NCBI GenBank assembly: GCA_016839585.1
Contig: JAEOTZ010000072.1
Coordinates: forward strand, 1 to 64,000
DNA from: Promethearchaeota archaeon
Lineage (GTDB): Archaea; Asgardarchaeota; Lokiarchaeia; Sigyniarchaeales; SOKP01
Length of the DNA stretch: 64,000 bases
Reading direction: 5' to 3'
Shown here: one piece after another, positions 44,700-47,521 of the stretch
Layout: every line of letters starts with the position of its first letter
How positions within the stretch are numbered: the first letter of the stretch is position 1
The notes under the pieces: generated by a model
Databases searched by the model: none
The model's input: the letters and a program-made list of their open reading frames with translations, nothing else
Told to the model about the DNA's origin: nothing
Program-made: the position numbers and the translations under genes

Positions 44700-45924
44700 T
44701 TAGAAATAGTGCACAGTAATATAATCAGGAACTACTACTTCCTCTTCTTTATTTTTGCAAGCAACAAAGTTTATTTTCATGTTTATTGATAGTGTGAGAA
44801 GACGTTTGGTTAAAATACCATCTATTATCAAATATTGGGTATCTTTATAATTTCTGATTTTTTCAAAAAGTTCTCCAACCATTATATCAAATAGCTTCTC
44901 CATTGCTTTATTAAAACCTATACTATGACCAGGTTCAATATCTTTAATACCCTCAATGATCGCAGATTCATTTTTAACCTTAAGATTTTTTAAAACATTA
45001 TATAGTCCCTCTTCTTTACCTGCATATTCTAATTCAACTTTTTCGATATCCTTTATTTCTTTAAACAAATTAGCGTTTTTCTTGTTTTGTAGTGCTTTTA
45101 TCAATTGCTTTCTAGTTAATTCCTCAACTTCATATCCCTCAGGAGCTCTAGCAATGAAATCAATTTTAGCAACTTGTAAAAGTTCCTTTAAAATGATCAT
45201 TCCACCCCTATCTCCATCCATAAACGCTGTTACCGAACTCTTATTTTTTGTTAATTTTATTACTGGCTTAGGCACTTGGGTTCCTTGGACTGCAATTGTA
45301 TTTTTAACACCAATCCTTAATAAGTTTAAAACATCTGCACGACCTTCCACAATTATTAAATCAGGATTAATATCTACTTCAGGTCCAGCAGGTAATTTTT
45401 CTTTACCCCAAGAAAGAATTTCTCCAAGTTTAATATCTGTGTCAATTTGTTCTTCTATTTCACTTGGTTCTAAAGATTTTTGATCCCACTCTTTTAAAAG
45501 TTCAGTAGCACGTTTAATTATTTTTTTTCGTTTTGTTTCGCGAACATCACGAATCTCTAAGAGTTTCATATCTGCTTCGCAAGGTCCAACCCTAGATACT
45601 GTTTCAACAGTCGCAGCTAATAGTGCTGTTTCTTTACGCGTGAGGCTACTAGGTATTTTAATGATCCCTTCGGAAATTCCTTCCTTGGATTCATTATCAA
45701 CCTCGATTCTTCCAATTCGTCCAGATTTTTGTAAATCCCTTAAATCCAGATCCAAAAGAAGACCTTCGGTTTAGCCGATTAAGCCGAATTGGCTTCAAGT
45801 TTCTTTATCTCTGGCCAAAAATAGCCCCCACAATATCGCTTTGTTCTACAACACCTTTAATTTTGAATTTTGTGGTGATAATATATTTTGTGGTAAATTC
45901 ATTTTGACTGGTAATCTTGATCAC
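44700..45924 (-). CDS. dnaG: Archaeal DnaG (TOPRIM; exosome-associated), split gene: exon 1 45924 (GTG; or ATT 45915)..45811, exon 2 45770..44700
   Basis: Exon 1 KYII…GVVEQSDIVGAIFGQ; exon 2 TEGLLLDLDLRDLQKSGRIGRIEV…IVEGRADV…DGDRGG. Confidence 0.9.
45771..45810 (-). other. Putative 40-nt BHB/BHL-type mRNA intron in dnaG
   Basis: AGAUAAAGAAACUUGAAGCCAAUUCGGCUUAAUCGGCUAA; removal restores GAIFGQTEGLL; central helix GGCC/GGCU with AG|A and AA|A junctions. Confidence 0.8.
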
Positions 45925-46187
45925 TTCCTTAATTTTTATTTTTCATAATGAAATCTAAGCTCATATTCAAAATCTATGAGAGTAAAATGATATATTGTAT
46001 GAGTTTGATTTTTTGAATTTTTTAAATAATTTTAATATATAATTTAAAATCATCATTGCGATGATTATATTTTAATAGAATTATTCAATCAATTTATTTT
46101 TTGTGAATCTAAAGAATTTCTCAAAAAGTAAAAAATAATATCCTCATGAGATATTTATTTTTTAGATAAGAATTATAATCTATATCA

Positions 46188-46495: not shown

Positions 46496-47521
46496 ATGGA
46501 GAAAATTCTCGTTTTAGGTGGTAAAGGAGGAGTTGGAAAAAGCTCTATTAGCGCTGCTACAGCCGTTTTATTATCAGATTTGCTCCCTAATAAAAAGATA
46601 CTTCTGATTTCTTTTGATATGGCACACAATCTTAGTGACCTATTTCAATTAGAGATTAATAATAAACTTACTCCATTATCTAGAAACCTCTGGGGAATTG
46701 AACCCGATGCTAATATATATGCTGAGGAATACACAAAAGAACTGATACAAAAAATGAAAACCCTAATGATACAGATGCCTATTGTTGGGATGATCCCCCA
46801 AATTGAAAAATTTATAGATAAAACTTTTACAGCAAATTCTATTCCATTGGCCCTAAAAAATGCCATGTTTTTTCAAAAAATTTTAGACGCTGAAGATATT
46901 AATACTGATGATGTTCAATTTGATATAGTTATCGCAGATTTCCCTCCTACTGCAAACATGATTACTTTATTTGAGATTCCGGAAGATCAAGTAAAAGTAG
47001 TTTTAAAATATTCTTTAAACTTCTATAATTCAATTAAAGGAGCTATTAGAAATGTTTCAAAAATGTGGAGGAATATCATAAAACCATTTGATGATCGTGA
47101 ACAGCGAAGAGAATTAGGAAAAGAAATCTTTAATATGATTGTAGAGCTCGAAAAGCGCGGTGAACGAATTTCAGATCTGATTCACGATATTGGTTCACTT
47201 AGACTTGTTACTATTGCTGAAAAGCCGAGTTTTGAGGAAATAAAAAGAGCGAGAGATTTAACGGAAAAATATATTAAATTAGAAGGAGTTCACATTAATA
47301 TGATTACTCCTGAAGCAAAAAAATGTGATTTTTGCAATATTCTACACTCAAATCAACTAAAATATATCAAAGAAATTAAAAGTGAATTTAAAAAATTAAA
47401 GATCTGGCAATCTAAAAGACTTAAAGAAGAACCTATTGGAATAAATGGTTTGAAAAAATTAGCTTATGAGATTTATGGAGTAGATATTAACGCAGAGAAT
47501 ATTTTAAATCCAAAAATATAA
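46496..47521 (+). CDS. ArsA/GET3 family ATPase
   Basis: GGKGGVGKSS, DMAHNLSD, DFPPT, C-terminal CDFC. Confidence 0.9.
   Translation: MEKILVLGGKGGVGKSSISAATAVLLSDLLPNKKILLISFDMAHNLSDLFQLEINNKLTPLSRNLWGIEPDANIYAEEYTKELIQKMKTLMIQMPIVGMIPQIEKFIDKTFTANSIPLALKNAMFFQKILDAEDINTDDVQFDIVIADFPPTANMITLFEIPEDQVKVVLKYSLNFYNSIKGAIRNVSKMWRNIIKPFDDREQRRELGKEIFNMIVELEKRGERISDLIHDIGSLRLVTIAEKPSFEEIKRARDLTEKYIKLEGVHINMITPEAKKCDFCNILHSNQLKYIKEIKSEFKKLKIWQSKRLKEEPIGINGLKKLAYEIYGVDINAENILNPKI

Follow-up and report, generated by a model that had tools for sequence, protein, structure and literature searches.

In a Promethearchaeota archaeon (Loki-type Asgard), the coding sequence of the single-copy gene dnaG is interrupted by a 40-nt insert which, with a probability that we put at roughly 0.88, is a genuine relaxed archaeal BHB intron cut out by EndA, with the exons joined by RtcB. 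EndA-type splicing of the dnaG mRNA is supported by the combination of introns at the same site with compensatory changes in relatives, selection on the exons, the single gene copy, an RNA contig without the insert, and genes for EndA and RtcB in the genome. The action of the two enzymes on dnaG RNA, and circularisation of the intron, are what we infer.

The interrupted dnaG gene

The sequence under study, hereafter the window, is a stretch of 64,000 nt of contig JAEOTZ010000072.1 in the MAG GCA_016839585.1. This genome (G000 in the coordinates below) comprises 3.45 Mb, is 99% complete and has a GC content of 29%. The gene is organized as follows:

45811..45924, minus strand: dnaG exon 1, GTG start at 45924, 38 codons, ending DIVGAIFGQ
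45771..45810, minus strand: 40-nt BHB-type intron (AGAUAA...GGCUAA), cuts CAG^A and AA^A
44700..45770, minus strand: dnaG exon 2, 356 codons plus stop, beginning TEGLL; Toprim domain (seen in the intron-less orthologue)

When the minus strand was re-read, the sequence, the 40-nt insert and the exon boundaries were exactly those given in the original prediction: GATATTGTGGGGGCTATTTTTGGCCAG is followed by 40 nt (AGATAA...GGCTAA) and then by ACCGAAGGTCTT, exon 1 ending in GAT ATT GTG GGG GCT ATT TTT GGC CAG and exon 2 starting with ACC GAA GGT CTT. The full insert (window 45810-45771, minus strand) reads AGATAAAGAAACTTGAAGCCAATTCGGCTTAATCGGCTAA. It breaks the frame and has TAA as its second in-frame codon. 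No further stop or shift was found in the frame of exon 2 and, as had been claimed, removal of the insert restores a DnaG of 394 aa without any other lesion. In line with this, exon 1 matched positions 1-26 and exon 2 positions 27-268 of the archaeal DnaG profile NF003108 (NCBIfam), so that the two pieces abut exactly between positions 26 and 27; exon 2 alone scored 353.7 bits against a curated cut-off of 300.

We found no second dnaG in the genome, which answers the question of another, intact copy that had been raised together with the prediction. Further copies of the intron were also searched for in the genome with blastn-short and none were detected; hence, the intron is not a repeated mobile element. 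Divergently upstream of dnaG, a 341-aa ORF (window 46496-47521, plus strand) carries an N-terminal GGKGGVGKS P-loop and may, judged by eye, encode an ArsA/Get3-like protein.

Geometry and folding of the splice sites

The elements of the predicted BHB motif were located as follows, with carets marking the cuts:

45813..45816, minus strand: central helix H, exon strand GGCC (exon -6 to -3, including the third base of the Gly codon); pairs with 45773-45776
45773..45776, minus strand: central helix H, intron strand GGCU (intron -6 to -3)
45810..45812, minus strand: 5' bulge A-G^A, cut after bulge nucleotide 2; junction backed by homology and the RNA contig
45807..45809, minus strand: inner helix h', 5' strand GAU; pairs with 45777-45779
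45777..45779, minus strand: inner helix h', 3' strand AUC; pair counts in alignment A1 (see below)
45781..45795, minus strand: internal hairpin AAGCC-AAUUC-GGCUU, in most of the clade, with A-N-N-U-C loops
45770..45772, minus strand: 3' bulge A-A^A, cut after nucleotide 2; with the next CC, a 5-nt relaxed bulge AAACC
45817..45822, minus strand: outer helix h, exon-1 strand AUUUUU; pairs with 45762-45767, 89.7% paired
45762..45767, minus strand: outer helix h, exon-2 strand GAAGGU; pairs with 45817-45822

The GGCC/GGCU central helix, the AG^A bulge and the GAU/AUC inner helix are all present as originally described, and the 3' side is relaxed. In the central helix, all four pairs (4/4) form between exon -6 to -3 and intron -6 to -3. 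With just 3 bp, the inner helix has to close a large internal loop; the U of its GAU strand doubles as the first base of the in-frame stop codon UAA (45805-45807). The outer helix begins two nucleotides late, which leaves a 3' bulge of 5 nt rather than the canonical 3 nt, while the 5' half is canonical. By itself, this outer helix (AUUUUU/GAAGGU) says little, as it is fixed for the most part by the conserved peptide IFGQTEG.

A cut after the second nucleotide of each bulge had been proposed to give the frame-restoring junction, and both homology and RNA bear this out. This placement was the best-scoring restoration of homology against an intron-less orthologue, and the joint of the RNA contig has the same register to within one nucleotide: since an A stands at both junctions, the cuts could equally sit one base further on.

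When an isolated 70-nt region was folded in silico, the BHB structure came out less stable than the predicted minimum-energy fold (-7.8 vs. -14.9 kcal/mol). Unconstrained folding of a 96-nt region gave no BHB, and its stability was no better than that of shuffled sequences (z = -0.26). Among relatives, BHB-constrained folds lay 5-9 kcal/mol above the minimum in the main clade and near the minimum at two loci, L028 and L065.

RNA evidence for the junction and independent DNA evidence for the insert

Four public runs, one of DNA (X5) and three of RNA (X16, X18 and X19), were compared over window 44700-46000. In the metatranscriptome X19, a 201-nt contig matched 45610-45769 and 45810-45849 and skipped exactly 40 nt, which is the spliced transcript that the original prediction had led one to expect. 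This is a single contig from an environmental library, with 40 nt on its shorter side, three mismatches against the window and a depth of 2.8, and its joint is ambiguous by one base because an A flanks both junctions. Assembly by k-mers cannot drop 40 nt without reads that bear the junction. The RNA runs X16 and X18 yielded contigs elsewhere in dnaG, short of the junction.

Presence of the insert in DNA was confirmed by X5, a run from another study, in which a 7.2-kb contig (97% alike) contained the whole stretch with the insert and without gaps. It is unlikely that the X19 deletion represents DNA carried over from an intron-less strain, because every close relative in the immediate subclade (L031, L032, L033 and L069) has the dnaG intron.

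Introns at the same site in relatives

The dnaG loci of 40 relatives, of named GTDB records and of a later phylum survey were sampled. At the same position, between Gln and Thr (site A), an insert of 29-43 nt was present in 30 distinct sequences, and a further 42 distinct sequences were uninterrupted. Exon -6 to -3 paired with intron -6 to -3 in 30/30 of these introns, in which the Gly codon and the intron strand were combined as GGC/GGCT (20 sequences), GGT/GGCT (8), GGG/GCCT (1) and GGA/GTCT (1). The same glycine in the 42 intron-less genes was encoded by GGA in 23, GGG in 8, GGC in 6 and GGT in 5. Thus, inserts at the same site with covarying helices, for which a check had been proposed with the original prediction, do occur across relatives, with the third base of the Gly codon covarying.

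Pair counts were made on alignment A1, which holds 21 distinct sequences, with the structure taken as originally proposed. The central helix was 100% paired, pair 12-51 being CG in 14 sequences, UG in 5, AU in 1 and GC in 1, and the inner helix was 95% paired, with UA-to-CG and AU-to-GU changes. The structure as a whole reached 90.3% pairing vs. 86.9% in shuffles, of which 0/500 attained 90.3%. Sliding the partners against each other lowered pairing to 23-52%.

Among intron-bearing relatives, pN/pS was 0.11-0.30 for exon 1 (pS 0.43-0.99, synonymous sites being near-saturated) and, similarly, 0.10-0.18 for exon 2. These ratios show purifying selection on both exons, and the low value of exon 1 excludes a decaying gene.

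These data bear on the possibility that the insert is a lesion, i.e., that the gene is a decaying pseudogene or the insert an error of assembly, and that the RNA contig stems from an intron-less strain. The spliced form is represented by one RNA contig, and other species of the genus do include intron-less dnaG alleles, both of which would suit a lesion. However, the insert recurs in an independent DNA run from another study and at the same site in 30 distinct assemblies, the gene is single-copy with both exons intact and under purifying selection, and no member of the immediate subclade is without the intron. We therefore regard a lesion as scarcely credible and close to refuted.

With regard to the history of the intron, the main-clade introns share an AGAUAA 5' end, a GCCAnUUCGGC hairpin and AAUCGGCUAA, which makes their homology clear. 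In a quick DnaG tree, the intron was distributed patchily and needed 9-10 changes, of which 2-3 were forced by well-supported branches. Shared sequence and patchiness together fit an old intron with repeated precise losses, which would have been retained patchily within the family.

The terminal loops of the intron hairpins were mostly of the form A-N-N-U-C (AAUUC, AUUUC, AGUUC, AUAUC, AUCUC and AGCUC). Such loops, observed in A1 and in L191, L192 and L201, recur even where the intron sequence is unrelated or the site a different one. As a separate observation, the taxon labels of the MAGs were inconsistent (L051, L047, L059, L035 and L066): a contig labelled 'Candidatus Nanopelagicaceae bacterium' has an Asgard dnaG, and MAGs titled Odin-, Hod- and Hermodarchaeota nest within one genus-level clade of DnaG together with Promethearchaeota records.

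Splicing enzymes and proposed pathway

Two paralogues of the PF01974 endonuclease (EndA) were found in the genome, at L074:1453-2058 and L075:1438-2040, both on the minus strand. The nearest matches of one of them, paralogue 1, were catalytic alpha subunits, namely those of Aeropyrum pernix (3p1z_B and 3ajv_B), S. tokodaii and P. aerophilum. The Tyr/His/Lys context is retained in this paralogue, and a KPR stretch lines up with the KPR of A. pernix in the region that we take to be the Crenarchaea-specific loop of EndA. In paralogue 2 the catalytic His is replaced, and this protein looks like the structural beta subunit. RtcB was also present (match of 560 bits). By these matches, the genome is predicted to encode a crenarchaeal-type alpha/beta EndA pair together with RtcB. 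Asgard EndA has been described as an (alpha-beta)2 enzyme with an L1 loop, which permits relaxed motifs, and relaxed BHB forms need EndA of the (alpha-beta)2 or epsilon2 type (PMC5829648).

In the pathway that we propose, GGCC of the exon and GGCU of the intron would form the 4-bp central helix of the pre-mRNA and GAU/AUC the inner helix, and the bulges on either side, AG^A and AA^A, would contain the splice sites. A heterotetrameric alpha/beta EndA of the crenarchaeal type, with the specific loop, would cut behind nucleotide 2 of each bulge, which should leave 2',3'-cyclic phosphate and 5'-OH ends. RtcB would then join the exons to ...GGC CAG ACC GAA..., with the spliced junction TTTGGCCAG-ACCGAAGG and a DnaG of 394 aa as the product, and would probably circularise the intron, giving the circle junction GGCTAA-AGATAA. 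Without splicing, translation would stop after 39 aa (38 aa plus Arg), since UAA is the second codon of the intron. The original claim that this Asgard archaeon splices dnaG mRNA with its tRNA-splicing machinery is now backed by a spliced RNA, covarying helices and the encoded enzymes, EndA being the presumed nuclease.

Further short introns in the same genome

In a homology census, the ORFs of the closed genome of a relative from the same genus (G022), which is without the dnaG intron, were compared with the ORFs of this genome. At least eight inserts of 25-40 nt, distributed over seven genes, were absent from G022. The genes are dnaG, PFK (with two introns), thioredoxin, ubiquitin E2, an LSM/Sm-like gene and two genes without a Pfam match. 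Other split genes with BHB-bounded inserts, for which a scan of the genome had been proposed, therefore exist in the form of at least seven further introns, each recognised by homology to a relative without the insert:

G000 C59:53203-53232, minus strand: 30-nt insert, AGGG AG^A ... CCCT AA^A, intron-less orthologue LSM/Sm-like (PF01423)
G000 C2:58875-58904, plus strand: BHB insert in a 210-aa protein without Pfam match
G000 C25:15416-15440, plus strand: BHB insert in thioredoxin
G000 C33:8087-8116, plus strand: BHB insert in a 105-aa protein without Pfam match
G000 C5:68318-68349, minus strand: BHB insert in ubiquitin E2
G000 C62:43149-43178 and C62:43464-43494, minus strand: two BHB inserts in PFK

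For each of the eight inserts, the top or a near-top frame-restoring placement had BHB geometry in the same cut register, with 4/4 pairs in H (3/4 in one case) and 2-4 of 4 in h'. At a pairing chance of about 0.4 per position, the BHB geometry predicted for all eight cannot be coincidence. The dnaG intron is the longest of them and the only one with a non-contiguous outer helix; the six inserts outside dnaG and the LSM gene measure 25-32 nt. The geometry and register of the dnaG intron are far beyond chance, as they recur in 30 distinct relatives and in the seven other inserts.

A scan of the genome for BHB motifs combined with ORFs gave about 36,000 matches per register and no enrichment over wrong-register controls, even when filtered by energy; it was uninformative because adjacent genes and intergenic hairpins swamp the signal. 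In the census, an 83-nt excess against the orthologue at G000 C52:8194-8292 (plus strand) was rejected as an intron, being an in-frame Lys-rich expansion, and many 'splits' of zero excess were antisense-frame shadows. That a gene of the Sm family should itself need tRNA-type splicing is a curious feature in an Asgard archaeon.

The shared register is also relevant to whether the dnaG insert could be removed or skipped without EndA and RtcB, by translational bypassing of the phage T4 gene 60 type, by self-splicing, or by another nuclease and ligase. The stop after the take-off region and the hairpin do superficially resemble gene 60. Nevertheless, the deletion is present at the RNA level, and take-off and landing codons mismatch in all 30 introns (CAA or CAG before the insert vs. 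CUAA before ACN), for which reasons translational bypass was rejected. At 29-43 nt, the inserts are far below the size of group I or II ribozymes, which excludes ribozyme introns. In addition, it is precisely the BHB helices that covary, and 8/8 introns of the genome show the EndA cut register. Taken together, a route other than EndA and RtcB appears very improbable.

Distribution of dnaG introns across Asgard lineages

To place the dnaG intron within the phylum, a 74-residue query spanning the junction was run over 400 genomes. A split-match signature was obtained in about 50 of the 126 genomes of the family, in the sole sampled genome of a sister family, and in all matched genomes of three other families (18/18, 3/3 and 2/2). 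A split match in G118 turned out to be a contig end and was discarded.

BHB introns at site A were seen in two other families too. Those of G399 (32 nt, GGCC/GGTT) and G155 (34 nt, H 3/4, with a 6-bp h') have unrelated sequences, as do the site A introns of L028 and L065. Introns were also located at two additional positions, site B (DI^VG) and site C (TEGL^LG), at the following loci:

L192:1404-1620 (G149), L193 (G140), L201 (G217), L206 (G274) and L202 (G201): dnaG introns at sites B/C

At site B, introns of 30-31 nt combining AGAT with GTTT, GTCT or ATCT were present in four species. Site C introns (28-31 nt, GCCT/GGGT) occurred in the whole 18-genome family f19, and their h' had at least six paired positions as scored and eight by eye in G149. 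The most conserved motif of DnaG thus has sites A, B and C inside a stretch of 11 codons.

Such clustering raises the rather speculative idea, to which we give a low probability, that the Asgard DnaG motif DIVGAIFGQTEGLLG is a hot spot at which tRNA-type introns were gained independently at three positions, possibly repeatedly at one, and where the intron would be maintained as a point of control that depends on splicing and has a fail-safe stop codon. If true, a hot spot would imply active insertion of introns, e.g., by EndA/RtcB reverse splicing followed by reverse transcription, targeting mRNAs, and such insertion would act in the closest prokaryotic relatives of eukaryotes.

A related, and still less probable, proposal is that the intron is real and regulatory as well: the efficiency of splicing, perhaps via a competing fold that hides the 3' splice site, would tune DnaG and the exosome to EndA/RtcB activity. 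Conservation of the intron beyond the BHB core across the family (AGAUAA, the GCCAnUUCGGC hairpin and AAUCGGCUAA) would agree with this, as would the in-frame stop inside the first three codons, which was found in 30/30 introns. Further, the predicted minimum-energy fold is an alternative structure with a UCGG/CCGA hairpin across the 3' splice site. This competitor hairpin is, however, not conserved, being lost where exon 2 begins with ACA or ACG and in L028 and L065. Moreover, at least seven introns of like build lie in unrelated genes (two in PFK, and one each in thioredoxin, E2, LSM and the two genes without a Pfam match), and about 60% of the family members, as well as all sampled genomes of several sister families, manage without a dnaG intron. 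The regulatory proposal is accordingly improbable, and the link between RNA-decay capacity and EndA/RtcB activity suggested in the original prediction found no support, introns of the same build being located in functionally unrelated genes. An EndA-type intron remains our preferred reading.

Relation to known splicing systems

The intron is of a known kind, here in a new phylum and a new gene. The cbf5 intron of Crenarchaeota was reportedly the subject of work by Watanabe in 2002 and by Yoshinari in 2006. It is a short BHB-type intron within the protein-coding sequence of the cbf5 pre-mRNA (Yokobori 2009, PMC2738675). In common with it, the dnaG intron is short, of BHB type, placed in coding sequence and hosted by an organism with a hetero-oligomeric EndA; in both cases, gain and loss are patchy among relatives and the full protein requires splicing. 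The dnaG case differs in the gene, in its Asgard/Promethearchaeota rather than crenarchaeal host and in the relaxed 3' bulge. Unlike cbf5, it is also one of at least eight mRNA introns in a single genome, and across Asgard archaea it belongs to three sites within 11 codons.

In eukaryotes, HAC1/XBP1 mRNA undergoes unconventional splicing by IRE1 together with RtcB or Trl1, at twin stem-loops, and acts as a proven regulatory switch. The likeness to dnaG consists in a protein-only, non-spliceosomal excision of a short, frame-changing mRNA intron with subsequent joining by a tRNA ligase, whereas the IRE1 endonuclease, the twin stem-loop motif and the established regulation set HAC1/XBP1 apart.

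An mRNA substrate of the splicing endonuclease is also known from Haloferax volcanii, where a BHB element in the 5' UTR of the HVO_1309 mRNA is processed in vivo and in vitro (PMC7714728). The dnaG mRNA would resemble it as a substrate of this enzyme. In contrast to the HVO_1309 element, which lies in an untranslated leader, the dnaG intron interrupts the reading frame, and its cleavage by EndA is presumed.

In the searchable published literature we found no report of Asgard mRNA introns; there, cbf5 was the only case of archaeal coding-sequence splicing and the HVO_1309 5' UTR the only other mRNA substrate. An Asgard tRNA-intron preprint of October 2026 (bioRxiv 10.64898/2026.10.13.758758) does not mention mRNA, dnaG or cbf5. 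The present results indicate that a conserved single-copy Asgard gene requires tRNA-type splicing, with RNA evidence for the spliced form, and suggest that tRNA-splicing machinery, presumably through EndA, has a broad range of mRNA substrates in the lineage closest to eukaryotes. As gene callers break intron-split genes, Asgard proteomes and completeness estimates are affected. The system is tractable for studying the spread and loss of protein-spliced introns, and splicing alongside coupled transcription and translation.

Non-canonical archaeal tRNA introns were reportedly treated by Marck and Grosjean in 2003. Asgard and TACK tRNA introns share with the dnaG intron an hBHBh'/relaxed motif, a length of about 25-40 nt, the presumed enzymes and a motif of which half is built by the exon (PMC5829648; bioRxiv 10.64898/2026.10.13.758758). 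Unlike these, the dnaG intron resides in a translated mRNA, so that splicing has to proceed in competition with ribosomes, and codons constrain the exon-borne half of its motif, a constraint visible as Gly-codon covariation. With respect to tRNA genes themselves, ARAGORN detected only 18 in this 99%-complete genome, a number in keeping with reports that Asgard tRNA genes are heavily interrupted.
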